Below are positions 2,624 to 25,462 of a stretch of DNA of 35,332 nucleotides, in pieces. Every line of letters starts with the position of its first letter. The first letter of the stretch is position 1. Source of the DNA: an uncultured Candidatus Sumerlaeota bacterium (GTDB lineage Bacteria > CAYMEV01); NCBI GenBank assembly GCA_964389675.1, contig CAYMEV010000008.1:107084-142415 (forward strand), given 5' to 3'. The position numbers and the translations under genes are program-made. Below the pieces are notes generated by a model. That model searched no databases. It had not been told where the DNA came from and saw nothing but the letters and a program-made list of their open reading frames with translations.

Positions 2624-2692
2624 TAAAAATACCATCCAAAAAAACATGCAAGCCCATCCTCTGGGGCTGATTTTACCGGGTCTCCTCTACTC

Positions 2693-2726: not shown

Positions 2727-2747
2727 CTGACCCGGGAGAAAAAGTAT

Positions 2748-2776
2748 TTGAATTTTATTTAAAAAAATATTATAAT
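2748..2776 (+). promoter_or_regulatory. Sigma70-type promoter for the cmr operon (TTGAAT-N17-TATAAT)
   Basis: Hexamers at 2748-2753 and 2771-2776, about 80 nt upstream of cmr1. Confidence 0.5.
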
Positions 2777-2855
2777 GAGTAAATAATCCTAATAATTTTA
2801 TAGGGGTTATGTTTCATTAGCGAAACTACTAATAAATTTAGTATTGGAGAAATAT

Positions 2856-3857: not shown

Positions 3858-3873
3858 ACTAAGGAGTATAAAT

Positions 3874-6624
3874 ATGAACAATAATGATTATATAGCACAG
3901 CTTCAAGCTTTTTTTCATGATCCCATAGATAAGCCTATAAACATTCACAATCATGAAAAACGTGCTGAAGAACAGATCTCTCAACTAGGACTTCAATATA
4001 ATAAACCTTCAGCATCAGATCATATTGCATCTGCTGCAGACAGGATACATTCATATAATGATAACCAGGGAAATACTATCCAGGTTAACTTTGACTCAGA
4101 AGGAGAGATTACGCATCCCCTCGGAAGCGGAGTTTTAAAGCTCACCGACCAGGGAGACCTTATGATCAACACTAAAAATGTAGCAGATAATATTACAAAA
4201 TATCTCCATGATCTTAAAGACAGATACAATGATAGCTATAAAGATATTATTATAAGACTTTGGAGAGAATTTCCTGAGAAAATAAAAACTGATGAGCTGC
4301 CTAACTATAGGCTTGGTAATCTGTGGGATTACCTTCCAGCTGACACAAGAATACCCGATCATTCTATCCTTTCTCACAACTGGCTCGTATCAGCAGTAGC
4401 TTCCTGCGGGGACAATATAATTTTTTCGAAATTTTCTATCGGTCCTGTTCAAAGCTTCATCTCAACTGCAAAAAGAACTGAAGATTTTTGGATGGGCAGC
4501 TACATGCTATCCTATCTGATTTCCCAAACAATAATATATATAATTGATAATTTAGGTCCACAACATATTATATTTCCTTATGTAAAAGGTCAGCCATTCA
4601 TAGATTATCATTTATGTGATAAATACCAAATAGAACTATATAACCAGAGTTCCCCTGATCACCATAAAAATTATAAATATAAGATCTACAATTCATCCCT
4701 TTCAAATGTCGTATTTTTTATATGCCCCGAGAAGGAATATAAACAAATAATTGAGAAAATTCAAAAATACATCATGGAAGAATGGGATAAATTATGCAGA
4801 GAAGCCCAAAAAAAATTCAGTTTCAATGATTATGCAAAGAAAATATTTAATGAACAAATAGGAAGCTTTTTAGAATTCAATTCTGCAGGAATAAAAATAG
4901 AATCATGTAATATTAACAACTTCTTAGATACCTATCAGAAAGCTGTTGGCAAAATTATGAAGCCAAAAAGCAATTACAAACCTAATATAGGAACATACTG
5001 GGACAATATATATGAATACCTTGATAAAGTATTTTCCTCCTCAAAATTAACAAAAAAATTTAACTATATCGAGGAAGAGGGCAGAAAATGCACATTATGC
5101 GGAGAGCATTCTGCAATTGCACCAGATGAAGAGACAAGCAACTCTACATCAAAACTTAAAGAATACTGGAAAGATCATACTAAAAACCTTGATTCATTCC
5201 GCATCGATAAGGATGGAAATGACAGATTGTGCGGAATATGCCTTACAAAAAGAATGGCTCTGGAATCATTTTTCAAGAACAAATACAAGGACTTGAACAC
5301 AGATATTAGTTTTCCTTCCCTTATGTCAATAGCATCATGGCCATTCAAACTTAAAGTAATAGAAAACTGGGAAACATATATAAAGAGCACCAATTATGCA
5401 AGCAGTAACAATAAAAAGCTAAAAGACATAGTAGAAGAATATAATCATTTAATAGACGAGAATGCTGAAAAAGTGCATCTACCCTATAATATAATTAAAA
5501 AGCTGAAAGATAAAACAAAAATCTTAGAGGGAAACACTGACACTAGAATGGAAAATTTTATGAGATATGATGGACAATGGATCTACATAGATGCAATAAA
5601 AAACAATAAGGATATTGATAAGAAAACAGCAGGAAAAATCATATCTTATCTTAAGACAATCTACTCCACAATAGGTGATAGACCCAACAAATACTATGCT
5701 ATAGTATCCATGGATGGAGATGAGATGGGAAAATGGCTATCAGCGACACATCCAAAATGGCCAAAATATAAAGATGTAGTACACTCTAAAATGAATCTCA
5801 ATCTCGCTGATAAAAAGCAGCTTGATGAGAAGATTAACCTATCTCCATCCTTGCATGCATTCATCAGTCATACTCTTAACAATTTTTCACTAAATACTGT
5901 AACCAGAATCGTAGAATCTGATTACCCGGGAAAGCTCGTCTATGCTGGTGGAGATGATGTACTTGCAATTTTACCCTTTGATTATGCGCTTGAATGCGCT
6001 GAAAAAATCAGATATTTCTTTTCAGGAAATGTAAACAAGAAGATGGAGATCGACTTAGACCAGAAAAGCGGATACTACAAAATTGGCAAGGATATTATGG
6101 CTACTATGGGAGATAGAGCAACAATGAGTGCAGGGATAGTCTATGCCCATTATAAATATAGCCTGCAATCAGCAATAAAAAAATCCAAATACTGCGAGAA
6201 GTCTGCTAAGACATTATGTGGTAGAGATGCATACTATATTTCGATCCTAAAGCATTCAGGAAGCGAAATACAGCTAGGTCTTAAATGGAAAATAAATAAT
6301 TCAAGATCTATAGATCTAATTAATAATATAGTAAAAAGTGCTGAAAACGGCAAACTTGCAATGAATTTTTTCTCCTCTGCTCACACTTTACTTAATAAAT
6401 TAGATAATTCTCAGATAGATATATTTAAATCTCTGCTGCATAGGGATATTAGAGACCACATAGTAAAGAAAAAAGACAAAGATGAGATATATAATACCAT
6501 TGAAAAATCATTTAAACCTATACTAGATAATCCACCAGAAAATTCAGATAGATCAAAAAAGGCTTTTCTGCTTAGCCTGCTCTTATGCATGCGCTTTCTA
6601 GCTTCTAAAGGAGGAAAAGAATAA
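3874..6624 (+). CDS. cas10: Cas10/Cmr2 large subunit with intact cyclase Palm motif
   Basis: N-terminal FHDP and DHIASAADR; PADTRIPDHS; IGPVQSFI; Zn finger CTLC...CGIC; DGDEMG and YAGGDDV. Confidence 0.96.
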   Translation: MNNNDYIAQLQAFFHDPIDKPINIHNHEKRAEEQISQLGLQYNKPSASDHIASAADRIHSYNDNQGNTIQVNFDSEGEITHPLGSGVLKLTDQGDLMINTKNVADNITKYLHDLKDRYNDSYKDIIIRLWREFPEKIKTDELPNYRLGNLWDYLPADTRIPDHSILSHNWLVSAVASCGDNIIFSKFSIGPVQSFISTAKRTEDFWMGSYMLSYLISQTIIYIIDNLGPQHIIFPYVKGQPFIDYHLCDKYQIELYNQSSPDHHKNYKYKIYNSSLSNVVFFICPEKEYKQIIEKIQKYIMEEWDKLCREAQKKFSFNDYAKKIFNEQIGSFLEFNSAGIKIESCNINNFLDTYQKAVGKIMKPKSNYKPNIGTYWDNIYEYLDKVFSSSKLTKKFNYIEEEGRKCTLCGEHSAIAPDEETSNSTSKLKEYWKDHTKNLDSFRIDKDGNDRLCGICLTKRMALESFFKNKYKDLNTDISFPSLMSIASWPFKLKVIENWETYIKSTNYASSNNKKLKDIVEEYNHLIDENAEKVHLPYNIIKKLKDKTKILEGNTDTRMENFMRYDGQWIYIDAIKNNKDIDKKTAGKIISYLKTIYSTIGDRPNKYYAIVSMDGDEMGKWLSATHPKWPKYKDVVHSKMNLNLADKKQLDEKINLSPSLHAFISHTLNNFSLNTVTRIVESDYPGKLVYAGGDDVLAILPFDYALECAEKIRYFFSGNVNKKMEIDLDQKSGYYKIGKDIMATMGDRATMSAGIVYAHYKYSLQSAIKKSKYCEKSAKTLCGRDAYYISILKHSGSEIQLGLKWKINNSRSIDLINNIVKSAENGKLAMNFFSSAHTLLNKLDNSQIDIFKSLLHRDIRDHIVKKKDKDEIYNTIEKSFKPILDNPPENSDRSKKAFLLSLLLCMRFLASKGGKE

Positions 6625-7742
6625 TGGATAAGAACTTTGGACTAAAAATTATACCTTATGATGTCTGCTATTTCCGCGGATCAAAACCATTCAGCAGGGG
6701 CTCAGAGCATTTTGCAGAGTCAGCTTTTCCCCCGAATCCATCAACACTGTATAATGCACTTAGAACTACAATTATAAACGAGAATAACATAAATATTAGA
6801 GATTTTTATAATAGTAATATTCCTGATAATATAAAAGAAGAAATCGGTACTGCAAATACAAATGGAGACCTGAGCATTAAAGGCATATTTCTATTTAAAG
6901 GCGAGACATATTCAATAATGCCATTTGATATTGTAAATAATTTAGATCAAGATTACAGGATTTTAAGATTGCATAAAGATGAAAATGTTATAATTTCTGA
7001 TAAATTACCTTATTTCCCATTTATTGCCGATACTTCATATAAATATTCTGGACAATATTTTTCCATTGAAAATCTTAAAAGCTATCTCTACTGTGAAAAC
7101 AGCTTTACACAGTCAGAAATCAAGGCTGAATCTGATTTTATCCTCAGGGATAAGCGCGTCGGTATAGGTATCGATAAAAATGCATCAATTGCTGGAGAAG
7201 GTCTGCTTTTTATAGCGCATGCAATAGAATTTAGCCCAGGATCATGCCTGTATGCAATTATAGAAAAATCAAGCTTATTGAAAAATGAAGGACTCATGAG
7301 GCTAGGCGGAGGATCAAGGCCATTTATTTATAAAAAAGAATCCGATATAACTAGCTTTGAGGACATAGATACCGATAAAATAAAAAGAATTATCTCCAAA
7401 ACAAAACGCTTTAAGGTAATCTTCCTTTCTCCATCTATCTCTAAAGAAGGATGGAAAAACACAGAAATTACAGACTGGACAACAAAAAATAATATAGAGA
7501 TGATTTCTGCACTAATTCAAAGACCAAAAAAGATAGGCGGATACAATATGGCTGAAAACAAGCCAAAACCAATGTACAACATGCTTCAGGCAGGTTCAGT
7601 CTATTATTTTGATATTAAAAACGAAATCTCAGATAATTTACTCGATTCAATCTTTGACTATTTTCATCTAAATAATCATACCGATATAAATAAAAACCAA
7701 GGTTTTGGTTTAACCGTTATAGGAGGATATAATGAAAAATAA
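6624..7742 (+). CDS. cmr3: Type III-B protein Cmr3 (Cas5 group)
   Basis: PYDVCYFRGSKPF, FPPNPSTLYNALRT, RLGGGSR, AGSVYYF and C-terminal GFG. Confidence 0.92.
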   Translation: MDKNFGLKIIPYDVCYFRGSKPFSRGSEHFAESAFPPNPSTLYNALRTTIINENNINIRDFYNSNIPDNIKEEIGTANTNGDLSIKGIFLFKGETYSIMPFDIVNNLDQDYRILRLHKDENVIISDKLPYFPFIADTSYKYSGQYFSIENLKSYLYCENSFTQSEIKAESDFILRDKRVGIGIDKNASIAGEGLLFIAHAIEFSPGSCLYAIIEKSSLLKNEGLMRLGGGSRPFIYKKESDITSFEDIDTDKIKRIISKTKRFKVIFLSPSISKEGWKNTEITDWTTKNNIEMISALIQRPKKIGGYNMAENKPKPMYNMLQAGSVYYFDIKNEISDNLLDSIFDYFHLNNHTDINKNQGFGLTVIGGYNEK

Positions 7743-8589
7743 AAAAAATGACTTATTGTTCTTTTATGCTCAGACCCCTGTACATTGTGGTAGTGGTTCA
7801 TCTCTCGAGGTCATAGATCTACCGATCCAGAGAGAGAAACATACAAATTATCCTATCTTCCAGGCTTCATCTATAAAAGGTACAATGCGCAGGTTCTATG
7901 ATGATGATAAAACAATCGAGCCAATTTTTGGGCCTGAATCAAATGCGGAATATGCATCATGCATTACTTTCACGGACGCCAGAATATTGCTATTTCCAGT
8001 GAAATCATTTAAGGATGTATTTGTTTGGATTACATGCCCCCACGTACTTAGGAGGCTTATAAATGACATGAAAAGTATTGGCCTTAGCTACAATACTGAG
8101 TTACCATCATCACTTGCTGATGATGAGGCTATAATAACAGGTGAAATAAAAAGAATATGCCACAATAACAAATTAATCCTGGATGAGTATGTGTTTAATC
8201 CAAAAAGCAGCCAACCTGTCGCAGAGATATTAGATTCTATTAGCCTTCCACACAAAGATGATGTGATGGATAAAACTGCAATCATATCGGATGATATGTT
8301 TAAGTACTTCGTAACAGCTGCAACAGATGTAGTAGCACGAACCTCAATAGACAAAGATACTGGAGTAGTAAAAGATGGACAGCTCTGGTATGAGGAATAT
8401 CTACCATCTGATTCTATACTCTACTCAATAGTCTTTGCTGAAAACTCAAGGAACGATAACAGTAGTAATCTTGATGGCGATACAGTACTGGTAAAAATCA
8501 AACAAAGCATTACAAAAATCATCCAAATAGGGGGAAATGAAACTATAGGCAAAGGCATAGTGCACCTATTCTGGAATAAGGAGGAATAA
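7732..8589 (+). CDS. cmr4: Type III-B RAMP backbone Cmr4
   Basis: TPVHCGSG, IDLPIQRE (conserved catalytic Asp position), SSIKG, DARILLFPV, LWYEEYLP and QIGGNETIGKG. Confidence 0.96.
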   Translation: MKNKKNDLLFFYAQTPVHCGSGSSLEVIDLPIQREKHTNYPIFQASSIKGTMRRFYDDDKTIEPIFGPESNAEYASCITFTDARILLFPVKSFKDVFVWITCPHVLRRLINDMKSIGLSYNTELPSSLADDEAIITGEIKRICHNNKLILDEYVFNPKSSQPVAEILDSISLPHKDDVMDKTAIISDDMFKYFVTAATDVVARTSIDKDTGVVKDGQLWYEEYLPSDSILYSIVFAENSRNDNSSNLDGDTVLVKIKQSITKIIQIGGNETIGKGIVHLFWNKEE

Positions 8590-8593
8590 CCCA

Positions 8594-8965
8594 ATGAATA
8601 AAACATTAGGACAGGAAAGAGCAAATTACGCTTTTAATTGCGTAAAAGATGCTAAAAAGGATTTCAACAGTGAAAAAAAATCAAAAGAATATAAAGTACT
8701 TGTAAAGGGTTTCCCCTCAATGATTGTCAACAATGGCCTCGGTCAGGCTTTGGCTTTCCTAAAAGCTAAAGGCAAAGATCATCATAGTGCTCTCTATAAA
8801 AATATTGATGATTGGTTTAAAAATCCAGCATCACCGATAACTATCAATAATACGGACATACTAAAGCATATCATTAATAGCACATCGTTAGACTACCGAT
8901 ATATTACTGAAGAGGCTCTGCTGTTAATAAACTGGTTTAAAAAATTTGTGGATGCAGAGATCTAA
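8594..8965 (+). CDS. cmr5: Type III-B small subunit Cmr5
   Basis: KTLGQERA..A, PSMIVNNGLGQALAFL and YRYITEEAL...WFKKF. Confidence 0.94.
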   Translation: MNKTLGQERANYAFNCVKDAKKDFNSEKKSKEYKVLVKGFPSMIVNNGLGQALAFLKAKGKDHHSALYKNIDDWFKNPASPITINNTDILKHIINSTSLDYRYITEEALLLINWFKKFVDAEI

Positions 8966-8989
8966 TAAAAAAACTAAGGAGCATGTAAT

Positions 8990-10156
8990 ATGCCAATACC
9001 AATAAATTCTAGCTTAAAGAATGCTATTGAAAATGTAAATAGATTTAAGGAATCATCGAATTTAAATCTTCTCTTTAACAAATACATTTATAACTGGGAT
9101 GAAAATCAAGGTTATCAGAGCAAAAACAAGCATATTTTTCTAAAAACTATTTCTGAAACTTTTAATAGCAAAAATGTTTCTATGAATAAGAGTTATGAGT
9201 TTTTTATTAAAAAATGGAAAGATACTATAAATAAAATGCATAACTCTGTTGCTTTAACTGCTAATAACTTGACAAGACTCACTGTAGGGCTGGGAAATGA
9301 AACAATCCTGGAGAATTCTATCACACTGAATAATACTTGGGGATTTCCTTATATTCCGGGTAGCGCTTTAAAAGGTGCAGTAAGAGCATACTATATAAAT
9401 AAAATATCAGAAGATATCACAGAACTAGCACCTAATGATATTGATGATCTTATCTCACTATCAGATAAGGATTTCGCAAATAAGAATGCCGAAATAAAGA
9501 CAAATAAAAGCATCCTGTCTGCACGCAGGATATTTGGAACAAAGGATAAGGAAGGTGCAATAATCTTCTTTGATGCGTACCCGACAAAGTTTCCACTTCT
9601 AAAAGTAGATATAATGAATCCTCACTTTCTAAGTTATTACAGCAATAAAGAAAATAATAATCCCCCACCTGGCGACTGGGAAAACCCCGTTCTAATTTAT
9701 TTTATTACTGTTAAAGAAAATCAGCAGTTTCTTTTTGCATATTCGACAAGACATAATTATAATTTAGATGAAGTTGACCTTGGCCAATTAAAAGAATATA
9801 TCAAAGCAACACTTATAGAACATGGTATAGGAGCTAAGACATCAGTAGGCTATGGTTTCTTTTCAAAAATAGCCTATATCGAAAAAGAAGCTCCAAAAGA
9901 TCCGCCTAAACCACAGAAAAAACTCTCAGAAATTGAACAATTAGCATTTGATATTGAGAATAAATACAATGATAGCGATATCGGTAATTTCTTTATTAAA
10001 CTTGATCAATATTCAGGGGATGACCTGAAGACAATAGCACAAGCACTCAAAAAGCATTTCATTAAAAATAAGAAGTGGGCAGGATCAAAGCTAAGCAGAA
10101 AGCAAAAAGAAAAAATAGCTAAAATTAATACTATATTAGGAGAAGATAATAACTAG
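8990..10156 (+). CDS. cmr6: Type III-B RAMP protein Cmr6
   Basis: RLTVGLG, GFPYIPGSALKG, FFDAYP, DIMNPH, PGDWENP and GIGAKTSVGYG. Confidence 0.95.
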   Translation: MPIPINSSLKNAIENVNRFKESSNLNLLFNKYIYNWDENQGYQSKNKHIFLKTISETFNSKNVSMNKSYEFFIKKWKDTINKMHNSVALTANNLTRLTVGLGNETILENSITLNNTWGFPYIPGSALKGAVRAYYINKISEDITELAPNDIDDLISLSDKDFANKNAEIKTNKSILSARRIFGTKDKEGAIIFFDAYPTKFPLLKVDIMNPHFLSYYSNKENNNPPPGDWENPVLIYFITVKENQQFLFAYSTRHNYNLDEVDLGQLKEYIKATLIEHGIGAKTSVGYGFFSKIAYIEKEAPKDPPKPQKKLSEIEQLAFDIENKYNDSDIGNFFIKLDQYSGDDLKTIAQALKKHFIKNKKWAGSKLSRKQKEKIAKINTILGEDNN

Positions 10157-10494
10157 CCAAAGAAATAATTTATAAATTTATTCTTGAAGTAAATTCTCGG
10201 TCTTTACAATTTTGTTTTATTACTGACCTATTTATAAATAATTTGTTTTCTGTTGCAATGTAATTATGATTTTTAAATAATATTAATAAGAAAACACATG
10301 ATTACAATAAGTTGATATTTTTATAATATATAGCTATATATCTTCTCATTGAAGTTTTGAAATTCCTAAAATCGAGAATAATAATTGTTTAGACTGATTT
10401 ATAAAAATTACCTTAGGAGGTAATTTAAAAAATGACATTATCTTTTAAAATTGATATAATACAGCCGAGATACAGAGACAAAAAAGACATGAGG
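10157..10494 (+). promoter_or_regulatory. CRISPR leader with putative array promoter
   Basis: AT-rich region with no long ORF next to the non-degenerate end of the array. It contains ATGACA(10432)-N17-TATAAT(10455) with an extended -10 TG, and a 9-bp inverted repeat at 10405-10426. Confidence 0.75.
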
Positions 10495-13400
10495 GGATAG
10501 ATAGGTACCTTGATGAATAAAGGATTGCGACAGAGAGCCGGGTCGCCCAGTGCACCCGGTTTATCTGCACAGGATAGATAGGTACCTTGATGAATAAAGG
10601 ATTGCGACTTTAAGTCCGGTTCTTTTTAGACAAAAAAAAAGAACCGGTCAGGATAGATAGGTACCTTGATGAATAAAGGATTGCGACGCCTCAAGATCCA
10701 GGCAGTCTATACTGCATTGACTAAAGGATAGATAGGTACCTTGATGAATAAAGGATTGCGACAAAAGTCACGGAGTCAACGATCTCCCGATGTAATTCTA
10801 GGATAGATAGGTACCTTGATGAATAAAGGATTGCGACTTTTTCCTTTTTTTAGTTTAATTAAAAATAATGTCTAAAATAGGATAGATAGGTACCTTGATG
10901 AATAAAGGATTGCGACTCTTAGACAAATGTGTTCGTAGTCGATGATTATCCGTTCTGCAAGGATAGATAGGTACCTTGATGAATAAAGGATTGCGACGCG
11001 ACTAAAGACTGACAGAGCTTATCAAGTCTTGATATTTATGGTAAGGATAGATAGGTACCTTGATGAATAAAGGATTGCGACTTTCGGTATATAATGGTTC
11101 CTTATATCAAGAAACCATTGGATAGATAGGTACCTTGATGAATAAAGGATTGCGACATAAAGCCCCCCCCTTTGTCATTCCTCCTCAAGAGATTCGGATA
11201 GATAGGTACCTTGATGAATAAAGGATTGCGACTTGCACCCAGAGAAGTTTACAATAATCTTATCTGCTGTCATGGATAGATAGGTACCTTGATGAATAAA
11301 GGATTGCGACTCTAAAGTCCGCAACATGCGGATAGCTGCGGACTTATTGAGGATAGATAGGTACCTTGATGAATAAAGGATTGCGACTTCATCAACCCTC
11401 GCTTTCTCAAATATTTCATTGAGGACATTATCCGGATAGATAGGTACCTTGATGAATAAAGGATTGCGACAATAGATAAATTCTCTTATACTGTTGTGTT
11501 TCAGGTTAAAAGGATAGATAGGTACCTTGATGAATAAAGGATTGCGACTATAATCAAGGTTCTTCCTAAATTGCTGAAGCCTGTATGCAAGCGGATAGAT
11601 AGGTACCTTGATGAATAAAGGATTGCGACGGATTCCGCTCTATGCGTGAGTTTTTCCATAATTATCGGATAGATAGGTACCTTGATGAATAAAGGATTGC
11701 GACTGAATTAATTTTTTTCATTTTCTTTACTCCTTTTCATTGGATAGATAGGTACCTTGATGAATAAAGGATTGCGACTTTTATCTTGTCATAGCTGACT
11801 TGGAATTCTTTCAGCGTGTTCGGATAGATAGGTACCTTGATGAATAAAGGATTGCGACTTTGTAAAACAAGGCGTCCATAGCCTCTGTTATTCCTACGGA
11901 TAGATAGGTACCTTGATGAATAAAGGATTGCGACTTAAAATCCCTGAACAATTTTAACTTTTTGTTGTAGATAGGAGAGGATAGATAGGTACCTTGATGA
12001 ATAAAGGATTGCGACTTTTAATAATACTAACATTACTTTTTCTCCTTTTGTTTTTTTGGATAGATAGGTACCTTGATGAATAAAGGATTGCGACCCTTAT
12101 TTATGTATGTGATTTTGTTTTTATTTATACTCATTATAGGATAGATAGGTACCTTGATGAATAAAGGATTGCGACGAAAATCTTTCCAAATTTTCCTTAT
12201 TTATGTATGTGATTTGGATAGATAGGTACCTTGATGAATAAAGGATTGCGACTTGCCTTAAGCTTGCATACAAGCTTAAGGTATCTGAGCCATGGATAGA
12301 TAGGTACCTTGATGAATAAAGGATTGCGACATATAAAGGATTATCAATGAAGATAAAATTTTTATAATAACTTCGGATAGATAGGTACCTTGATGAATAA
12401 AGGATTGCGACCTATCTTCCAGGACGGCATATTTCCGTTTGCCCTTTTCCTCAGGGATAGATAGGTACCTTGATGAATAAAGGATTGCGACCTCTTCTTC
12501 AAGATCTCTAACGGTTTTGATTATCTTCTGGATAGATAGGTACCTTGATGAATAAAGGATTGCGACAGGTTTTTAATAGAAACTAATTCTGAACCCAATA
12601 TAATGGATAGATAGGTACCTTGATGAATAAAGGATTGCGACATGTAATAAGTTGAATATATCTCAGGATAGTGTTAATGATAGGATAGATAGGTACCTTG
12701 ATGAATAAAGGATTGCGACTTTTGTTTTTAATTCTTCCATTTCTTTTCTCCTTTTGGGATAGATAGGTACCTTGATGAATAAAGGATTGCGACTATTTAT
12801 GTATTTAATAAAGCTCATTTCCTATCTCCAATGGATAGATAGGTACCTTGATGAATAAAGGATTGCGACCAGTCCTGCTCTGAGTGTCCATGCTGGTAGA
12901 TTTAATTGGATAGATAGGTACCTTGATGAATAAAGGATTGCGACTTGAAACGCTCTGAAATTGCCTTGATTTCAGCAATCCTTTTCTGGATAGATAGGTA
13001 CCTTGATGAATAAAGGATTGCGACTTAAACCTATCAATAGAAAGAATTTTACCTAAACCTCGGATAGATAGGTACCTTGATGAATAAAGGATTGCGACTA
13101 AAGTCGTGCTTAAAGGCAACGACGTAGTAATATTTTTTATTCGGATAGATAGGTACCTTGATGAATAAAGGATTGCGACTTTTCTATAAAAATCTTTGAG
13201 GCTCATTTGGGCAGGTTCGCCGGGATAGATAGGTACCTTGATGAATAAAGGATTGCGACTGATTTGCTCCTTGTTCAATTCATGGTTGGTAATAGGATAG
13301 ATAGGTACCTTGATGAATAAAGGATTGCGACTTTTCCTCAGCTCAATTAATGGATCATTTACATGAGCTGGATAGATAGGTACCTTGATGAATAAAGGAT

Positions 13401-14036
13401 TGCGACGGATACAATCCTAAAGTTAGCCCTCCGATACTGTAAAAATTTGGATAGATAGGTACCTTGATGAATAAAGGATTGCGACTCGTCTCTGAGTAAA
13501 TCAATTATTTGTTTATATATCTTATAACAGGATAGATAGGTACCTTGATGAATAAAGGATTGCGACTGGATAGTAATGCCTTTATGGCTTTTTCAAGCCT
13601 TCTTGTTCGGATAGATAGGTACCTTGATGAATAAAGGATTGCGACTTCTTTCATACGCATCCTCCGTTCTAATAATTTATTATTAAGGATAGATAGGTAC
13701 CTTGATGAATAAAGGATTGCGACTCTGTAGCGAGCTTGACGAGTTTTACTAAGTGCCTATTTTCTTGGATAGATAGGTACCTTGATGAATAAAGGATTGC
13801 GACTATACGCTATCTCCCTCACTATTTCCTCTAATCTATTATACAGGATAGATAGGTACCTTGATGAATAAAGGATTGCGACTTATCCACCTCTGTTTTT
13901 ATGAATATTTTTGTGAAACTATCAAAGATAGATAGGTACCTTGATGAATAAAGGATTGCGACTTTTAATATCTTTCTTTATAGTCTTTGATTTCTTTTTC
14001 GATAGATAGGTACCTTGATGAATAAAGGATTGAGAC
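10495..14036 (+). CRISPR. CRISPR array with 46 repeats of 37 bp (GGATAGATAGGTACCTTGATGAATAAAGGATTGCGAC) and 45 spacers of about 35-47 nt
   Basis: Counted by eye. The last two repeats are degenerate (first base changed; terminal repeat ends GATTGAGAC), which marks the trailer on the right. A CCTT/AAGG stem is followed by an 8-nt ATTGCGAC 5'-tag, and spacers are T-rich on the + strand, as expected if antisense to mRNA. Confidence 0.99.
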
Positions 14037-14366: not shown

Positions 14367-15788
14367 TTAATCAGATTCCCCTAAGGATAATTCTATATTC
14401 TCAACCTCTGCAAAGAACTGAATAAGCTCATCAACAAATCTCTTAAATCCCTTATAATTATTTTCTGTAACAAAGGAAAAACCGTGAGCAAGGACACTAA
14501 AATTACGGTTCTTTAAATGGCTCTGCATCCTTTTTAATGAGAGAGATATTCTTTTTGACAGGCTCAGATCGTCATTAATTGCCTGTAAAATGATATAGCC
14601 TGATATCAGGCTTATCTCTGAAGGGAGAATGGAAACAGACTGCAGGCCTGCAGATTTTCTTATCCTGTTAATCTCTGTAAGAAGATCATTATTATTTAGT
14701 TTTATTTTGCTGTAATCAGGCTTTGCTGTATCAATATCGTACAGGGCAAATCTTCTCTGTTCAAGTATCTCAATGAGTCTGTACAGATAAAGGGAGGCAG
14801 CATCCAGCCTGCCTAAAGCTGCTCTCTTCATAGCATTTTTATATATTATCTGAATAAGCTCTTTCACAGCTTTTTTGTCCTTTAGAAGTTCCAGAGAACT
14901 GTCCCCTGGATTCTTTGGAATAAGGGAAGAGAGATGCAGAAGATCTTCGGTCTTTTTATCCCATTTTTCGCGTAATTTGCCGTAATATTGCCGCTCCAGT
15001 AAATTGGCTTCTTTTATGAGCCCAGCGCTTTCAGATATATTCAGCAGATCTAATTGGTGCAGGGCTTCGGCATGTTTGTATTTTATCATGTATTTCAGAG
15101 GTTCGCGACATTTCTCGCTGAGTTCTCTGTATATTTCTGAAGCACCTCTGTAGTCATAATGCTGAAGCAGGATGTCTGCATTTTTTTCCCTGAGTGTCCC
15201 AAAAACCGCATAGGGGTTATCTATAAATTCCAGATATTCAGAACCAGGCCTAGGTCGCCTTAATTCTTTGAGATAATCTCTATTTCCTATATAAATAAGC
15301 TGAAAATTAAGAAGTGCACCAACCATTGCCAGACCACTGGTCATAGTTTTTTTGCCTGCAGTAATATCTACTGCTATCTTTTTTATACCGCGGTCCTGCC
15401 AGGCATTATAGATGTTTTGAACATTTTTATATATTGAAATGGGGAATGGTTCTACTATCATCTCTTTTTCATAGCTTGATGGCTTTATCTGAGTAAAACT
15501 AATAACCTTATCAAGAGATTGCTCTGATTCTTCGGTACACAGGAAGAGTATCCTTTTTGGTTTAATTGTACTCAAAGACATAATGACAGGCTCCGGGGAT
15601 GTACCGACAGTCATTATAAGACCATCAAAATTTATCTCCTCCAGCTTTTTTTCTTCTTTTATAACAAAATTTCTAAATACTATAGGGAATATCTTTTCCT
15701 CGTAAAACCTATCAAGCTGTTCTTTTGCAGACCCTGTGGCCTTTGCAATCTCTAACCATTGGTTAGTAAGTTTTTTCAATTCATCCAT
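14367..15788 (-). CDS. CARF-HEPN ancillary ribonuclease (TIGR02710 / Csx1-Csm6-like)
   Basis: CARF motifs TVGTSPEP and VDITAGKKTM; C-terminal HEPN motif RNFSVLAHG; YRLIE. Confidence 0.85.
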   Translation of the reverse strand: MDELKKLTNQWLEIAKATGSAKEQLDRFYEEKIFPIVFRNFVIKEEKKLEEINFDGLIMTVGTSPEPVIMSLSTIKPKRILFLCTEESEQSLDKVISFTQIKPSSYEKEMIVEPFPISIYKNVQNIYNAWQDRGIKKIAVDITAGKKTMTSGLAMVGALLNFQLIYIGNRDYLKELRRPRPGSEYLEFIDNPYAVFGTLREKNADILLQHYDYRGASEIYRELSEKCREPLKYMIKYKHAEALHQLDLLNISESAGLIKEANLLERQYYGKLREKWDKKTEDLLHLSSLIPKNPGDSSLELLKDKKAVKELIQIIYKNAMKRAALGRLDAASLYLYRLIEILEQRRFALYDIDTAKPDYSKIKLNNNDLLTEINRIRKSAGLQSVSILPSEISLISGYIILQAINDDLSLSKRISLSLKRMQSHLKNRNFSVLAHGFSFVTENNYKGFKRFVDELIQFFAEVENIELSLGESD

Positions 15789-15794
15789 GGATAT

Positions 15795-17051
15795 CTACTC
15801 CTTCCTTATATTTATTGCCCTATAAGATTCCCTCTGTTTTTTTTTATCAAATGATGGGGTAATGTCAAATATTACTTTTTGCTCGCGGGATATACCTTCA
15901 GGGAGATCCTTTGTAAAACAGAAATAGGATTCGCTGCCCGATTTAATAAAACAGAAAGGTTTTTCAGGGGATATTGAGATAACTTTCCCCTTTAGGTCTT
16001 TTTTTTCATTGCCGGCTGAGGGCTTTCCCTTCAGCCATTCTTTTTTGCATGCTTTCAGGAGTTCATCAATTGTGAATTCTTTTTTCGGGGTTTGAAAGAA
16101 GCTTGATAATTCCTGCAGAGATGCGGACAGCGATTCAGGCATGTTCCAGCCCTTTTCCTCTCTGACCAGCTTTGAAAGCATAAAATGAAAGAAACTCATT
16201 TCATATTGCTCTAAGTCCTTATAGACTCTGCCAAGGTTCTGCATAAGAACCACTTTCATGTCAAGCTTGGGCATTAGACTTGAAGATAAAAGCAGCATGG
16301 GAAGTGCTTTTTCAGGGCAGCCGGTCTCTGCAATAATCTGGCCATATTCATTCAGAATCCACCAATCGGGATGCGGCGTATTGCAGAGAGCTTCATAAAT
16401 CTTAAGTGCCTGTTCGGTGTTTTTAAGGTTATAGAAGGCTTTAGCTTTCAAGCGGAGAAAAAACTTCTTTTGTCTGGGGAATTTATCTATGATTGTCTCT
16501 ATAAGCTCTATGGCTTTGTTATCATCATTGCTGTTAATTAATGATTCTGCATTATAATAATACCACATTGCCCTGTCGCTCCAGTCAGATTTTGTATTTG
16601 TGCTGTTGGGTTTATTATCAAGATCAGCCGGGTTAATAAGGTCTATGTTCTCCTTGATAAAATCAAAACGCTTTGATTTTTTGGCTTCTTTGAATAACTT
16701 AAGCAGAGAGACCTTGAGTGCTGTAATATCAGGCTTTAATGCCTTTATCTTTTCAAAGGCTGTATCTTTGGAATTAAAATCTGCAGAAACATCCATTAGT
16801 ATTCCCTGTATATAGCTCCATATCATCTCGTTCCTGCACCATGCAATATCCTGCAGTTCTGGCGGAATTGCATCAGCTATGCTTATTGCTTCGGCAAATT
16901 TTCTCTGTTTTCTAAGGCAATGCAAGTATCCTGCAGCATCATAGCCATCTTTTGTATCAGATGACTCATAAAGCTCTTTGTATATTGCTTCTGCCTGTTC
17001 ATACTTCTGGTTCTTTCTCAGGTTATTGGCCATTTGCTTTTTAGTATCCAT
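15795..17051 (-). CDS. TPR-repeat protein with a C-terminal cold-shock/OB-fold nucleic-acid-binding domain; function unknown
   Basis: Helical TPR-like repeats throughout. The C-terminus LKGKVISISPEKPFCFIKSGSESYFCF...KVIFDI...YRAINIR resembles a CSD/S1 fold. Confidence 0.7.
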   Translation of the reverse strand: MDTKKQMANNLRKNQKYEQAEAIYKELYESSDTKDGYDAAGYLHCLRKQRKFAEAISIADAIPPELQDIAWCRNEMIWSYIQGILMDVSADFNSKDTAFEKIKALKPDITALKVSLLKLFKEAKKSKRFDFIKENIDLINPADLDNKPNSTNTKSDWSDRAMWYYYNAESLINSNDDNKAIELIETIIDKFPRQKKFFLRLKAKAFYNLKNTEQALKIYEALCNTPHPDWWILNEYGQIIAETGCPEKALPMLLLSSSLMPKLDMKVVLMQNLGRVYKDLEQYEMSFFHFMLSKLVREEKGWNMPESLSASLQELSSFFQTPKKEFTIDELLKACKKEWLKGKPSAGNEKKDLKGKVISISPEKPFCFIKSGSESYFCFTKDLPEGISREQKVIFDITPSFDKKKQRESYRAINIRKE

Positions 17052-17062
17052 AATTCTTTACC

Positions 17063-17356
17063 TCATACTATAATTAAATCATCAAATTCTGTTTTTGTGC
17101 TGAGCCCTGATACCTGTATTGCCGCCTGGCACCTGGAGCAGAGCGAATAATACCTTATGCTGTCCTCTTCAAAATCTATTACCTTCTCAAGTTTGTAACG
17201 CATCTTTATGTACTGATTATAGGTTATGCGGCAGTCGAATACGCTTTTCTGGACCCTTACTCCATAGCTCTTCATTATCTTGGCTACCTTTGCCCTTTTC
17301 CTGTCATCTATTATGTCGTAGCAGACAACTATATACAGAATATTATTCATAGACAT
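17063..17356 (-). CDS. cas2: CRISPR adaptation protein Cas2
   Basis: VVCYDIIDDRKRAKVAK...YGVRVQKSVFDC...DSIRYYSLC. Confidence 0.97.
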   Translation of the reverse strand: MSMNNILYIVVCYDIIDDRKRAKVAKIMKSYGVRVQKSVFDCRITYNQYIKMRYKLEKVIDFEEDSIRYYSLCSRCQAAIQVSGLSTKTEFDDLIIV

Positions 17357-18392
17357 AAGGCTGATAATCAGCCTCTCCCCTCAGGCATTTTACAAAAAGC
17401 CTTATCTGTCTTCTAATAATGTCCCTGTAAGACATGTTCTTCTCCTCCCTGGAATAGTACTCCTCCTTTAAAAGATAGCTCTTGAGCGATACTATAAATG
17501 TCTTTATACCTTCATGGGTCAATCTGACAGGCATGTCTTCCTTGTTATATTCAGTCTCTTCATCGGGGTCAAAATCATCAAGGTCCTCTTTTGAAATAAA
17601 AAAATGCGAAAGCCTTATTCTTTTCTGATTAATCAGCTTTATTACAAGCCTGTCAATAATTAGAGGCCTGAACTCCTCCATCAGGTCAAGGACCAATGAA
17701 GGCCTGCCGTATTTCATGGAATGCAGAGATCCCAGATAGGGATCGAGCCCTGTTATATTTATAGCCTGCTGTACCTCATTGGCCAGTAGAGCATAACCAA
17801 AACTAAGCAGTGCATTGAAAGGATCCTTGGGAGGTCTCCTTGTCCTTTTTTCTATATGGAACTCAGGGGGTTTTATAAGTTTATTGAAAACAGAGAAATA
17901 TACCCTCGCGGCATCCCCCTCATATCCCATGAGGGTATCCAGGTCCTCTGCAATGTTCAGTTTAGGCAGTCTGAATTTTAGGCTTCTTATAACCTCGGTT
18001 ATCTTAATATCCCGTATTACATAATTATGCTTGCGCAGGACTACCATCTCATTTTTAATCTTTGCTTCTATTATTGCTCTTGACTGAACCAGTTTGAACG
18101 AGTCATCTGAGAGCCTGGAGAACTGCAGTTTTCTGAGTTCGATATTTTTACCCCACTGGGTCAGAAGCCTTCCCCTGTATCTGCCGTATACAGTTAGGAA
18201 TACAGTGTCTATTCCCTTCTCCAGGAGAAAAGCTATGCAGGAGGTAGTAATGTTTACATTGCCGAATATTACCACCTGTTCAATATTAAAGTGATGCACC
18301 CATTGTATTGCCTCACCATTCTTCTTTACATAAAGCCTGTTCTGGCTCTTGTGAAGTGAAGCGCCCTGATCTGTCACATACATTACAGACAT
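17343..18392 (-). CDS. cas1: CRISPR integrase Cas1 (no RT fusion)
   Basis: LMGYEGDAARVYF, RTRRPPKDPFNALLSFGY, GLDPYLGSLH and LVLDLMEEFRP. Confidence 0.98.
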   Translation of the reverse strand: MSVMYVTDQGASLHKSQNRLYVKKNGEAIQWVHHFNIEQVVIFGNVNITTSCIAFLLEKGIDTVFLTVYGRYRGRLLTQWGKNIELRKLQFSRLSDDSFKLVQSRAIIEAKIKNEMVVLRKHNYVIRDIKITEVIRSLKFRLPKLNIAEDLDTLMGYEGDAARVYFSVFNKLIKPPEFHIEKRTRRPPKDPFNALLSFGYALLANEVQQAINITGLDPYLGSLHSMKYGRPSLVLDLMEEFRPLIIDRLVIKLINQKRIRLSHFFISKEDLDDFDPDEETEYNKEDMPVRLTHEGIKTFIVSLKSYLLKEEYYSREEKNMSYRDIIRRQIRLFVKCLRGEADYQPYVYE

Positions 18393-18394
18393 AG

Positions 18395-20278
18395 CTACAG
18401 TACCAGGAGAAACCTAGTTTTTCCATCAGCATCCTTTATTCTCTGAAGTTTTGCAAAGGATGCCGAGAGCTCCTCTATATCCTGGCTGTCAAAGTAGTCG
18501 TTAAATATATCCTCCAGCCTCTGCATTCTTTTATCAAGGACAGAAAGGTCCTTTTTTGTCTGCATATAGTCCTTGATAGCCTTTTCCAGCTGAAGCTGGC
18601 TTACAATACCGGACTGAGGCTGTCCGCTTATATGCATCAGCGGAGTAGGATATATAGCAGAGTTTGAATCATAGGCGCATGAACAGTTGACTTTGCTTGT
18701 GATATCCGGTATTTTTTTTCGGATCTTCGGACAGCTCATTGGATTTCCGGAGAATTTTGACTGCATGAGATATGAATCGTTGCAATTAATGCATGAGTGC
18801 AGGATGTAATTTACAATATTTGCTCCGTTTTTCAGGTGACCCAGGGTGTGCCTTATTACGAGCTGTTCTTCATTATTAAGCTCTCTGTAAGTAAGGGCAT
18901 TATTGTAGAGCTTCTCTATGACAGAGCATTTAGATAATATTGATTGAAACTCAATGTCAGAGTCAGGGTCAAAAACCTCAGCCGGCTGTGAAGGCATCTC
19001 AGTTTCTTTGCCTTCCTTGTGGGTATCTACTTCCCACGGAACATCATCCTCATTATCATGCGAATATGACTCAGCATAGGGACTGTTGCTTGCTATGGCA
19101 GCTTGAAGCATATCAATGTCTGCTCTTTTTATTCTGGTTAAGAACAATAGCTGATCATCATAATAGCTGTCATTGGAGGGGTCCATGAACAGGCATCTCT
19201 TCCCCGTCCTTCTGTGGATCCCCAGAGGTATTTTAATAAGGTTTCCGTAGTTTTTAGCTTTTACATAGCTCTGTTTGGGAAAAATCTCGATACCGAAAGC
19301 CTCATCTATACTAATTGATGATATCACTGCTTTGCAAAATTCCCTTGCAATCTTTGCTGGTACCGGGGAAGCAAGGAATATCCATACATGATAGCCCTTA
19401 TACCCGCTATCCTCAAGGTAGCATGGTATTTCAGAGGATGACAGCCTGTCAACTATGCCTTTTGCTACCTTAAGCCCCCTCTTCTGATATTGTTTTAATT
19501 TATCTTCATCAGAGATAATATTCTTCAAGAATACTTTTTTTATATCTATATCAAACGCTATAAATCTGACTGTATTATCCATCCTTAGCTGGTATATGCC
19601 AACAGTGTGATTTCCAAGAATATGGTTTTTTGCAACTATATGGGTAAACGGCTGAGATTCCTTTGAATACCCTGATTCACCAGTGGGACTTACCCACTGT
19701 TTTGCGTATACACCCTCTCTTCCGCTGAAGAGTTCAGCAAATGCTATTAAATAACTGTCATCAAGCCTCTCAAGGTGAAGATGATCTTTATCAACTGAAT
19801 TTTCAACGATCTCCTTCCCAGCAACAAGTTGAGCACCAACTATCAGACTGTCGTAGCTCTTTTTATTGAACTGTTCTTTTGCTTTTTTATATATCCTGCT
19901 TGCTTCCTCATACATATTATTATCCTTAAGGAGGCTTCCATAAAGCAGGTAGACCTTTTCCTGGTTTGGATCACGCTCTATGATAGCTTTATAATTCTTT
20001 ATCGCCTTTTTGACATTGCCGAAATCACTGTGCAATTCAGCAAGCTTATAATGAATATCGACAGGATCATCAGAACTGGAAAGAGCAAGGTTGAGCTCAG
20101 TTACCTGCTCCTTATAAAGACCTGCCTGGTCTAGCAGATCTGCAAGAGCTATGTGAAAATCCCTGTCCCTTATGCTTTTTGTGTCATACCTGCTGTAGAT
20201 CTCTGCTATAATTTCGATATTTTCTTCATCAAGGGCTTTCTGCACCTCTTCAATAAGAACACCGGTATTCTTATCCAT
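18395..20278 (-). CDS. CRISPR-associated primase-polymerase (CAPP; TPR + AEP Prim-Pol + Cys-rich PriCT-like domain)
   Basis: N-terminal TPRs; AEP motifs FDIDI, SGYKGYHVWIF, EIFPKQ and GNLIKIPLG; C-terminal Cys cluster (KC...MSCPKIR...CSC); located directly upstream of cas1. The start is placed at 20278 (MDKN) after a GGAGG RBS, whereas the track starts at 20305. Confidence 0.88.
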   Translation of the reverse strand: MDKNTGVLIEEVQKALDEENIEIIAEIYSRYDTKSIRDRDFHIALADLLDQAGLYKEQVTELNLALSSSDDPVDIHYKLAELHSDFGNVKKAIKNYKAIIERDPNQEKVYLLYGSLLKDNNMYEEASRIYKKAKEQFNKKSYDSLIVGAQLVAGKEIVENSVDKDHLHLERLDDSYLIAFAELFSGREGVYAKQWVSPTGESGYSKESQPFTHIVAKNHILGNHTVGIYQLRMDNTVRFIAFDIDIKKVFLKNIISDEDKLKQYQKRGLKVAKGIVDRLSSSEIPCYLEDSGYKGYHVWIFLASPVPAKIAREFCKAVISSISIDEAFGIEIFPKQSYVKAKNYGNLIKIPLGIHRRTGKRCLFMDPSNDSYYDDQLLFLTRIKRADIDMLQAAIASNSPYAESYSHDNEDDVPWEVDTHKEGKETEMPSQPAEVFDPDSDIEFQSILSKCSVIEKLYNNALTYRELNNEEQLVIRHTLGHLKNGANIVNYILHSCINCNDSYLMQSKFSGNPMSCPKIRKKIPDITSKVNCSCAYDSNSAIYPTPLMHISGQPQSGIVSQLQLEKAIKDYMQTKKDLSVLDKRMQRLEDIFNDYFDSQDIEELSASFAKLQRIKDADGKTRFLLVL

Positions 20279-20433
20279 TAAGATACCCCTCCTCCAATAA
20301 GACATCTTTGTACTAATAAATTATAATACCTTATATGCTGATAATCAAGTCAAAATATAAAATTTTCCTGAATTTTATTCCATAAAATCCGATTGATCAT
20401 ATAATGAAGAAAGTAATATAAAGGGAGGCTGAA

Positions 20434-20811: not shown

Positions 20812-20812
20812 A

Positions 20813-25446: not shown

Positions 25447-25462
25447 ATTACCCTCCTTGATA

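Follow-up and report, generated by a model that had tools for sequence, protein, structure and literature searches.

Organization of the locus

The window analysed here is a stretch of 35,332 nucleotides from an uncultured Candidatus Sumerlaeota bacterium, and it carries a CRISPR array flanked by effector and adaptation genes (Table 1). The spacers of this array are all unique and 35-47 nt long, and its direct repeats are regularly spaced, 44 of the 46 being identical and the final two bearing one and two changes. Degenerate repeats mark the 3' end of the array, which places the leader at the 5' end. A promoter-like site in the leader matches 11 of 12 consensus positions and, as a consensus match only, would fit transcription of the array from the + strand. 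With its repeats and spacers, Cmr1-6 and Cas6, the array belongs to a type III-B locus. The adaptation module is CAPP-linked, as the CRISPR-associated primase-polymerase (CAPP) scores 356 bits against family NF040561 (cut-off 200) and adjoins cas1 and cas2; a set of invariant residues is common to this protein and 19 homologues. No second CRISPR array was found in the organism's own genome.

Table 1. Features of the locus, with positions counted from the first nucleotide of the window
Feature	Position	Strand	Remarks
Type III-B effector genes	1646-10156	+	profile scores
Cas6	1646-2599	+	over Pfam cut-off
Cmr1	2844-3857	+	over NCBIfam cut-off
Cas10/Cmr2	3874-6624	+	over NCBIfam cut-off
Cmr3	6624-7742	+	over NCBIfam cut-off
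Cmr4	7732-8589	+	over NCBIfam cut-off
Cmr5	8594-8965	+	over NCBIfam cut-off
Cmr6	8990-10156	+	over NCBIfam cut-off
Promoter-like site in leader	10432-10460	+	ATGACA, 17 nt, TG-TATAAT; 35 nt upstream of first repeat
CRISPR array	10495-14036	+	46 repeats of 37 nt, 45 spacers
Spacer 1 (sp1)	10532-10571	+	marginal hairpin; 6-bp perfect stem, longer in fold
Spacer 2 (sp2)	10609-10650	+	12-bp perfect stem 10616-10627 / 10636-10647, 8-nt loop
Spacer 8 (sp8)	11082-11119	+	marginal hairpin; 7 + 3 bp, one mismatch
Spacer 11 (sp11)	11311-11350	+	9-bp perfect stem 11315-11323 / 11337-11345, 13-nt loop
Spacer 23 (sp23)	12253-12293	+	11-bp perfect stem 12256-12266 / 12271-12281, 4-nt loop
CARF-HEPN Csm6-like protein	14367-15788	-	between array and cas2
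TPR protein	15795-17051	-	between array and cas2
Adaptation module (Cas2, Cas1, CAPP)	17063-20305	-	profile scores
Cas2	17063-17356	-	62 bits
Cas1	17343-18392	-	286 bits
CAPP type A1, N-terminal TPR region	18395-20305	-	NF040561

Hairpin-forming spacers in the array

Hairpin content was scored as the longest perfect stem whose loop spans 3 nt or more, and 2000 sets of dinucleotide-shuffled spacers served as the null. Of the 45 spacers, 3 have stems of at least 9 bp (shuffle mean 0.148, P 0.0005), 6 have stems of at least 7 bp (shuffle mean 1.97, P 0.0085) and 13 have stems of at least 6 bp (shuffle mean 6.29, P 0.0035). The longest stem averages 5.0 in the array and 4.46 after shuffling, and none of the 2000 sets reached the value of the array. 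A second null of about 40,000 length-matched windows from the organism's own genome yields stems of at least 9 bp at a frequency of 0.27%, or 0.12 expected per 45 spacers (binomial P 2.5e-4), and stems of at least 7 bp at 3.2%, or 1.43 expected (P 0.003). When the own-genome windows are restricted to those below 36% G+C, 0.18 stems of at least 9 bp are expected. The array likewise exceeds type I arrays (11 of 2115 spacers with stems of at least 9 bp; Fisher P 0.003) and metagenomic arrays with the same repeat (1 of 328; P 0.006). The per-array P near 3e-4 is weakened by the choice of this array for its odd look among very many arrays scanned. The hairpin excess is a real, modest feature, and the array carries more hairpins than background DNA does, an enrichment not seen in arrays that share its repeat core. 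An excess of long inverted repeats had been claimed in an earlier note on this DNA, and the shuffles, the own-genome windows and the folding described below bear it out; the nine arm pairs named there are all present in the spacers named.

Folding of the individual spacers separates strong hairpins from incidental ones. Sp2, sp11 and sp23 fold as DNA at -12.1, -10.3 and -11.7 kcal/mol (z -4.6, -4.5 and -5.2) and as RNA at -17.3, -15.2 and -18.4 kcal/mol, and their folds are equalled by none of 200 shuffles, the comparison with shuffled spacers having been proposed in the earlier note. The loop of sp11 holds a second copy of TGCGGA, which, as read from the sequence, could pair with the first arm instead. 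Marginal folds are found in sp8 (DNA z -3.1) and sp1 (z -2.4 as DNA, -3.2 as RNA). The hairpins of sp7, sp32, sp34 and sp37 do not exceed chance: the fold of sp32 is not significant (z -1.2), and the 7-bp stem of sp7 is unable to form in full because its loop is 1 nt. Intrinsic terminators, proposed earlier as a captured source, were rejected as the origin of the sp2, sp11 and sp23 hairpins, as none of the three terminator-like sites (a G+C-rich stem with a T run after it) falls in these spacers.

One of the three terminator-like sites lies in sp40 (13586-13599).

With respect to age in the array, five of the nine listed spacers (sp1, sp2, sp7, sp8 and sp11) do lie among the first 11, as originally counted. 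Stems of at least 6 bp are present in 6 of the 11 newest spacers and 7 of the remaining 34 (Fisher P 0.04), and stems of at least 7 bp in 3 of 11 and 3 of 34 (P 0.15). The G+C content of the 11 newest spacers is 0.39, compared with 0.31 for the others (P 0.03).

Hairpin content of other arrays

A set of 832 spacers was assembled from 32 arrays adjoining CAPP homologues, after arrays with a repeat consensus shorter than 30 nt had been dropped and duplicates removed (851 spacers reduced to 832); the type I comparison set and a second CAPP sample were freed of arrays with a repeat consensus shorter than 28 nt. The CAPP set contains 25 spacers with stems of at least 9 bp against 0.89 in shuffles, and 93 with stems of at least 7 bp against 18.4. 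The type I arrays (2115 spacers) contain 11 and 73, respectively, the 11 standing against 1.53 in shuffles. Pooled stems of at least 9 bp are thus about six-fold more frequent in CAPP arrays (3.0%) than in type I arrays (0.52%; Fisher P 3e-7), and the departure of RNA folding energy from the shuffle mean amounts to -1.6 kcal/mol for the window array, -1.5 for the CAPP set and -0.4 for type I arrays. The CAPP effect is very uneven, residing mainly in three arrays: the share of spacers with stems of at least 7 bp runs from 0 to 30%, and 6 of the 21 CAPP arrays with at least 15 spacers have none. The second CAPP sample (126 spacers) has 3 stems against 2.35 in shuffles. At the level of arrays, the CAPP and type I sets differ in the share of spacers with stems of at least 7 bp (Mann-Whitney P 0.03) and at least 8 bp (P 0.006), with P 0.11 once the shuffle expectation is subtracted, so that the contrast across arrays is weak. 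Two type I-C arrays, L149 (11 of 83 spacers with stems of at least 7 bp, 13%) and L128 (4 of 18, 22%), are as hairpin-rich as the window.

Arrays related to that of the window by repeat were represented by 328 unique metagenomic spacers from 15 repeat types with its 24-nt repeat core, chosen by repeat and not by CAPP linkage; 135 of 463 metagenome spacers had been dropped, their repeat not being extendable to 36-37 nt. These 328 spacers show no excess of stems of at least 7 bp (6 against 5.95 in shuffles) and contain 1 stem of at least 9 bp against 0.25. Arrays near Cmr2 or Csx11 without CAPP, a small sample of 179 spacers, hold 7 stems of at least 7 bp and 1 of at least 9 bp. From 33 Cmr2 and 6 Csm1 regions, six small usable non-CAPP type III arrays without a CAPP-type repeat were obtained, and L302, L317, L321 and L325, which carry repeats of the CAPP-linked type, were for that reason excluded from the tally of non-CAPP type III arrays. 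Long Cas1 reading frames were considered as RT-Cas1 and rejected, since they are Cas4-Cas1 fusions. The comparison of arrays with and without CAPP that had been called for gives a divided answer: pooled CAPP arrays are richer in hairpins than type I arrays, but L149 is as rich, the same-repeat spacers show no excess, and the experimental precedent lacks CAPP, which goes part of the way towards the refutation named in the earlier note.

Resampling of hairpin sites

Spacers that overlap another spacer in their own array indicate sites sampled more than once. In the CAPP set, such overlap is found for 20 of 56 hairpin spacers and 84 of 776 others (P 3e-6), a pooled signal confounded by array, as L020 supplies 42 of the 104 overlapping spacers. 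Taken array by array, overlap affects 5 of 13 hairpin spacers and 3 of 58 others in L064 (P 0.004), 4 of 6 and 15 of 53 in L038 (P 0.08), 10 of 16 and 30 of 71 in L020 (P 0.12), and 0 of 3 and 8 of 44 in L031. L020 has stems of at least 7 bp in 26 of its 87 spacers and overlaps in 42 of 87, with 34 overlaps on the same strand and 1 on the opposite strand. In L020 and L038, the overlapping spacers assemble into single contiguous sequences, and there the hairpin lies between unique flanks. In L064, one stem is common to five spacers, with three different loops and differing flanks.

Protospacers and target signals

Searches of phage and plasmid records with the whole array returned no protospacer, the phage matches being two (E 0.09 and 0.3) and the plasmid matches three (E 0.3 and above). 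The organism's own genome gave chance matches of 13-28 nt only, none with E below 0.001, and the matches in a sister genome (G001) were repeat-like only, with no protospacer. Exact scans of IMG/VR with parts of sp23, sp2, sp21/22 and sp11 and with hairpin spacers of L064 and L020 found no match, and a portion of sp2 scanned against a JGI metagenome was likewise without one. Compared with their own genomes, the L020 and L064 arrays matched only themselves.

The spacer strand of the window array is pyrimidine-rich, as expected of guides antisense to mRNA. An antisense pattern of ribosome site plus start codon, counted without targets, is present in 7 of the 45 spacers, where shuffles give 2.2 (P 0.004). 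The count agrees with a type III hot spot reported near gene 5' ends: according to that report (Nucleic Acids Res 2026, PMC13575424), spacer hot spots are linked to transcription and lie near gene starts. Whereas the published spacers were mapped on known phages, the present observation comes from pattern counting.

Origin of the hairpin spacers

Type III-A adaptation by Cas1-Cas2, in a system without CAPP, has been found experimentally to prefer DNA for which hairpin formation is predicted, and a co-resident type II-A system was without that preference, as described in the available portion of the report (Zhang et al. 2021, PMC8860593). As far as that portion extends, the shared features are a type III system with Cas1-Cas2, over-represented hairpin-capable spacers and some repeatedly sampled sites. 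There, however, a III-A system lacking CAPP was studied and new spacers with known targets were sequenced, whereas the window holds a III-B system with CAPP, represented by the 45 spacers of one natural array. Natural arrays have, in addition, been shaped by selection, which gives them an orientation bias unlike the orientation-neutral uptake that was published. Under the type III-A bias, protospacers would map to sso, oriT, attenuators, rRNA/tRNA genes or promoter-proximal regions; for the window array, only the antisense start-site pattern (7 of 45 spacers) points in that direction. A literature search on palindromic or self-complementary spacers found only an unrelated sense of the term, namely oppositely oriented spacer pairs (PMC4027179). 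Most likely, the hairpin excess repeats the published type III bias rather than a new primase-polymerase trick, making the window array a further instance of a known bias and not a new phenomenon. More specifically, there is about an even chance that sp2, sp11 and sp23 are faithful copies of inverted repeats in their targets, over-represented through type III sampling of hairpin-forming DNA. The inverted repeats would already exist in the targeted mobile elements, with both arms presumably in the target, and type III adaptation would draw on hairpin-forming DNA at a higher rate than on the rest. DNA of this sort may be transiently single-stranded or transcribed, as at single-strand and transfer origins, attenuators and regulatory palindromes, and the excess would then be caused by uptake bias, not by target make-up. 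Second-strand synthesis on these fragments may fall to CAPP, but nothing here requires it. Indirect evidence favours natural hairpins: none of the three strong palindromes of the window array reaches a spacer end, and in other CAPP-linked arrays overlapping spacers rebuild hairpins in non-palindromic flanks and hairpin sites are resampled.

The proposal that the hairpins reflect the acquisition mechanism holds up in part: a link to uptake is plausible given the bias of Zhang et al. and the pooled resampling counts, but a role for fold-back or for CAPP does not follow. Fold-back or template-switch synthesis, in which the polymerase would have copied back along its own product so that one arm arose in the course of acquisition and the target lacks it, draws on arms that are perfect over 9-12 bp and on the strand-displacement activity of CAPP noted in the accessible text of PMC8211822. 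A 13-bp palindrome in an L020 spacer, starting at spacer position 1, resembles a snap-back at a DNA end; its left arm occurs in no other spacer, and three overlapping spacers begin in its loop. A snap-back palindrome should, however, reach the spacer end, and the stems of sp2, sp11 and sp23 leave 3, 4 and 3 nt to the nearest end, with unpaired flanks. In CAPP arrays, the hairpin abuts an end in 14 of the 56 hairpin spacers (25%) and comes within 2 nt of one in 25 (45%), against 24% and 50% in natural genome windows, a null that covers edge-cut stems and removes any signal, so that a preference of hairpins for spacer ends was rejected. Overlapping spacers that are independent and have unique flanks moreover confirm several hairpins on either side, the shared stem of L064 with its three loops behaves as a natural family of elements, and the arm motif of sp11 recurs there as a third copy, as is typical for regulatory sites. 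On this evidence the fold-back explanation put forward earlier is highly improbable. Another suggestion holds that CAPP turns folded ssDNA or RNA into duplex prespacers, hairpin-rich spacers thus marking CAPP systems. It gains from the roughly six-fold pooled difference from type I arrays and from second-strand synthesis on short ssDNA, proposed as one CAPP role; prespacer synthesis from ssDNA by CAPP-Cas1-Cas2 modules is likewise proposed (Zabrady et al., Nat Commun 2021, PMC8211822). It is nonetheless quite improbable, as the controls are type I and the contrast may be one of type III versus type I, the published bias needs only Cas1 and Cas2 (in the accessible part of PMC8860593), and many CAPP arrays show no excess, nor do the arrays selected by repeat core. 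Sense and antisense RNA folding do not differ, which gives no pointer to a structured RNA source; structured RNA, and with it the capture of folded RNA envisaged earlier, was rejected. The window resembles the Marinitoga arrangement described by Zabrady et al. in having CAPP type A1 beside cas1/cas2 in a type III-B locus, but its CAPP lies on the strand opposite the array, and the accessible text of that paper reports nothing on spacer hairpins, the word "hairpin" having 0 occurrences.

A further possibility dispenses with uptake bias altogether: the natural hairpins would come from one or a few palindrome-rich elements that the array happened to sample, or reflect selection through the scanning of very many arrays. 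Hairpin content does vary greatly among arrays whatever their adaptation genes, as the range among CAPP arrays and the values for L149 and L128 illustrate; no excess is seen among arrays that share the window's repeat core, and the hairpin spacers and higher G+C gather in the 11 newest positions, as if a new source had recently been sampled. Natural arrays also all rise above shuffles, since inverted repeats are part of real DNA, as in the type I set. Against this stand the higher frequency of stems of at least 9 bp in the window than in both type I and same-repeat arrays, the preferential resampling of hairpin sites in L064, and the experimental bias on record for type III-A in the available text of PMC8860593. 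An origin without uptake bias is rather less likely than not.

Implications for type III adaptation

It is conceivable, though unlikely, that CAPP-bearing type III modules take prespacers from folded ssDNA of replicating or transferring elements, with CAPP making the second strand, and that L020, L064 and the window array are a fossil record of this process; if true, this would be the first in vivo signature of CAPP. Spacer choice in type III systems is poorly understood, and the window adds one modest natural example in which CAPP is not singled out. Should hairpin-rich natural arrays reflect uptake of folded ssDNA, they would lend support from wild genomes and a second subtype to the findings of Zhang et al., and L020, L064 and the window array would be places in which to seek the uptake substrates.

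Locus and array organization

A complete type III-B locus lies in the window; the table lists its parts and the neighbouring genes. The final two repeats of its CRISPR array are degenerate, and a promoter-like site matching the consensus at 11 of 12 positions lies 35 nt 5' of the first repeat; both features place the leader at the 5' end and make spacer 1 (sp1) the newest, in agreement with the orientation assumed in the earlier note. The CRISPR-associated primase-polymerase (CAPP) scores 356 bits against NF040561, for which the cut-off is 200. The phylum is represented by two genomes in the collection examined, and a CAPP is also encoded in the other one (G001), where it is 83% identical to the window protein (G001:C239, G001:C33). 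This sister genome further retains a short array remnant, the repeat core of which differs from that of the window at 3 of 24 positions.

Features of the type III-B locus and its array
Feature	Position	Strand	Remarks
467-aa ORF	243-1646		Immediately 5' of cas6; matches to adenylate-forming CoA ligases weak, far under cut-offs
Cas6 and Cmr1-6	1646-10156	+	
CRISPR array	10495-14036	+	46 repeats of 37 nt, 45 spacers of 35-47 nt
11 newest spacers	10532-11350		G+C 0.39
Other 34 spacers	11388-13999		G+C 0.31
Spacers 9, 12, 16, 20, 29, 30, 41	11157-13686		Antisense start-site pattern
Spacers 21 and 22	12095-12215		Neighbours with 21 nt in common, same orientation
CARF-HEPN Csm6-like gene, TPR gene, cas2, cas1, CAPP type A1	Downstream of array	-	
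Csx20, Card1, ring nuclease, CARF-adenosine deaminase	Beyond CAPP		
Cyclic-oligoadenylate-linked genes	14367-15788 and 20434-24800		Unusually rich set for one locus: Csm6-like CARF-HEPN, Csx20, Card1, ring nuclease, 705-aa CARF-adenosine deaminase fusion
Two unannotated ORFs	24892-26164		One with a DUF2161 PD-(D/E)XK domain
1377-aa protein	26413-30546		Nucleotide cyclase domain, AAA_16 ATPase domain, many TPR repeats; adjoins the CRISPR locus

Hairpin excess in the window spacers

All nine inverted repeats listed in the earlier note were located in the array. For every spacer the longest perfect stem was recorded, loops shorter than 3 nt being disallowed, and the null consisted of 2000 dinucleotide-shuffle sets. 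Stems of at least 9 bp occur in 3 of the 45 spacers (sp2, 12 bp; sp23, 11 bp; sp11, 9 bp) against a shuffle mean of 0.148 (P = 0.0005), and stems of at least 7 bp in 6 against 1.97 (P = 0.0085). Because real DNA is richer in inverted repeats than shuffled sequence, approximately 40,000 length-matched windows from the organism's own genome served as a second null; stems of at least 9 bp appear in 0.27% of them, so that 45 spacers should contain 0.12 (P = 2.5e-4), and 0.18 when only the low-G+C windows are counted. The hairpin excess in this array, together with the judgement that three such stems should be rare by chance, is thus confirmed, with the caveat that this array had been singled out for its odd look.

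The excess is real, yet it is carried by three spacers. The folds of sp2, sp11 and sp23 reach between -10 and -12 kcal/mol in DNA form and between -15 and -18 kcal/mol in RNA form and are matched by none of 200 shuffles, while among the other listed hairpins sp1 and sp8 are marginal, the fold of sp32 is not significant, and sp7, sp34 and sp37 have perfect stems of 5-6 bp, which is the chance level; the 7-bp stem ascribed to sp7 would leave a loop of 1 nt, making full pairing impossible. The reported clustering among the 11 newest spacers is weak, at 6/11 vs 7/34 for stems of at least 6 bp (P = 0.04) and 3/11 vs 3/34 for those of at least 7 bp (P = 0.15). These newest spacers also differ from the other 34 in G+C content (P = 0.03), and recent acquisitions may derive from a different element.

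Hairpins in related and control arrays

Twenty CAPP homologues were aligned and 80 loci were fetched around relatives in the genome collection, from which a simple array finder yielded 32 usable CAPP-linked arrays with 832 unique spacers. Stems of at least 9, 8 and 7 bp are found in 25, 56 and 93 of these spacers, compared with 0.89, 4.2 and 18.4 in shuffles. These stems are distributed very unevenly, with 19 of the 25 longest in three arrays (L020, 9; L064, 6; L038, 4), which, with 26/87, 19/71 and 7/59 spacers, respectively, also account for 52 of the 93 stems of at least 7 bp. Among CAPP arrays of 15 or more spacers, 6 of 21 lack stems of at least 7 bp altogether, and in a further CAPP sample (126 spacers) 3 such stems were counted against 2.35 expected. 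Most telling on this unevenness are arrays chosen by repeat core alone, obtained by scanning metagenomes for the 3' core (24 nt) of the repeat found in the window (102 stretches; 328 of 463 unique spacers kept, those whose repeat is fully definable), which show no excess: stems of at least 7 bp number 6, where shuffles give 5.95, and stems of at least 9 bp number 1, where shuffles give 0.25.

Control arrays without CAPP were drawn from the surroundings of Cas1, covering 100 such regions in 300 genomes from the phylum to which one CAPP host belongs. Family scans assign almost all of them to type I (I-B, I-C, I-G, I-MYXAN), so what is compared is CAPP-linked type III with type I. Their 2115 spacers contain 11 stems of at least 9 bp (0.52%; 1.53 in shuffles) and 73 of at least 7 bp (3.45%). 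The window lies above this type I rate for stems of at least 9 bp (Fisher P = 0.003), and with arrays as units CAPP and control sets differ in the share of spacers with stems of at least 7 bp (Mann-Whitney P = 0.03) and at least 8 bp (P = 0.006); with the shuffle expectation subtracted, P is 0.11. Two type I-C arrays, L149 (11/83) and L128 (4/18), are as rich as the window in stems of at least 7 bp, and arrays near Cmr2 or Csx11 without CAPP, comprising only 179 spacers, have 7 such stems and 1 of at least 9 bp. A CAPP-specific route to hairpin spacers is not supported and appears unlikely. L149 (G022:C1:1669800-1689700) also holds 5 stems of at least 9 bp, and a Cmr2 lies approximately 290 kb away in the same genome. 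In the type I controls L086-L179, 27 of 35 stems of at least 8 bp end no more than 2 nt from the edge of the spacer, as against 50% in natural windows; the latter measure approximately 41 nt, and the shorter type I spacers may explain this end bias.

Targets of the window spacers

Protospacers were not found in phage or plasmid records, in the organism's own or sister genome, in IMG/VR (scanned with parts of four window spacers) or in JGI metagenomes (scanned with part of sp2). The pattern CAT + 4-10 nt + CTCC/CCTC/TCCT, the antisense of a ribosome-binding site and start codon, occurs in 7 of the 45 spacers against 2.2 in shuffles (P = 0.004), and its sense direction in only 2. Together with the composition of the spacer strand (40% T, 27% A, 19% C, 14% G), this pattern fits guides antisense to mRNA 5' ends. 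It also agrees with a hot spot that depends on transcription and lies 10-50 bp past the start codon, described in the available text of a 2026 paper (PMC13575424) from the line of work of Zhang et al. 2021 (PMC8860593). A 12-mer across a ribosome-site-like stretch is common to spacers 20 and 29, and the overlap of spacers 21 and 22 indicates two samples of one target site.

Origin of the hairpins

The earlier note named fold-back or template-switch synthesis by the primase-polymerase as one possible origin of the palindromes. A palindrome made by a polymerase copying back along its own product should reach the end of the captured fragment. The stems of sp2, sp11 and sp23, however, stop 3, 4 and 3 nt before the nearest spacer end and have unpaired flanks. 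In the other CAPP-linked arrays, 14 of the 56 spacers with stems of at least 8 bp (25%) have a stem touching the end and 25 (45%) one at most 2 nt away, compared with 24% and 50% of 1119 own-genome windows with such stems, indicating that hairpins are placed as by random windows over pre-existing hairpins. Moreover, L020 and L038 contain independent spacers whose overlaps join up into single contiguous sequences, and there the hairpin is bounded by unique flanks; some of these spacers carry a single arm with that arm's own flank. In L064 one stem is common to five spacers with three loops and differing flanks, the mark of a natural hairpin element family. One 13-bp palindrome in L020, which begins at position 1 and whose left arm is absent from the other spacers, is compatible with snap-back. 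Overall, fold-back synthesis is not supported and is highly improbable. None of the sp2, sp11 and sp23 hairpins is terminator-like.

Several observations may be signs of biased uptake. In the CAPP set, hairpin spacers have sequence in common with a second spacer of their array more often than other spacers do (20/56 vs 84/776, P = 3e-6); the corresponding figures in type I arrays are 3/35 and 121/2080. Within single arrays the trend is clear in L064 (P = 0.004), weaker in L038 (0.08) and L020 (0.12), and absent from L031. Across the CAPP arrays, overlaps are on the same strand in 72 cases and on opposite strands in 3, against 46 and 20 in type I arrays. The array adjoining CAPP in a Syntrophaceae MAG (L020:3863-10849) has 42 of 87 spacers overlapping another, at offsets of 0-28 nt (34 same-strand, 1 opposite), and in many pairs there are a few base differences, as would arise if the array had returned time after time to related variants of one element. 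In a Cloacimonadota MAG (L064:14177-19808), 5 of 71 spacers carry the stem GCAGAGCT/AGCTCTGC, and here spacers have been taken repeatedly from a family of repeated hairpin elements in the targets. RNA folding energies relative to shuffles are -1.6 kcal/mol for the window, -1.5 for the CAPP set and -0.4 for type I arrays; structured RNA was considered as a source, but sense and antisense strands fold alike and give no pointer to it.

The main rival holds that the array simply drew on elements rich in palindromes, or that its excess reflects selection by the scan, the window array having been chosen for its odd look; this possibility is a serious but less probable one. The most likely account, given roughly even chances, is that the hairpins occur naturally in the targets and are taken up too often because type III systems, as is already known, prefer DNA that forms hairpins. 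In the type III-A system of Zhang et al. 2021, which lacks CAPP, the available text lists rolling-circle plasmid single-strand origins, oriT, attenuators and rRNA/tRNA genes among the sites of such uptake, and describes a type II-A system of the same cells as having no hairpin preference (PMC8860593). Second-strand synthesis on single-stranded fragments is proposed in the CAPP paper, whose available text does not mention hairpins (PMC8211822). Beyond Zhang et al., literature searches turned up no account of natural arrays whose spacers are palindromic or form hairpins. On the favoured account, the array, which belongs to a subtype III-B system with CAPP, would represent a new natural instance of a bias whose kind is already known.
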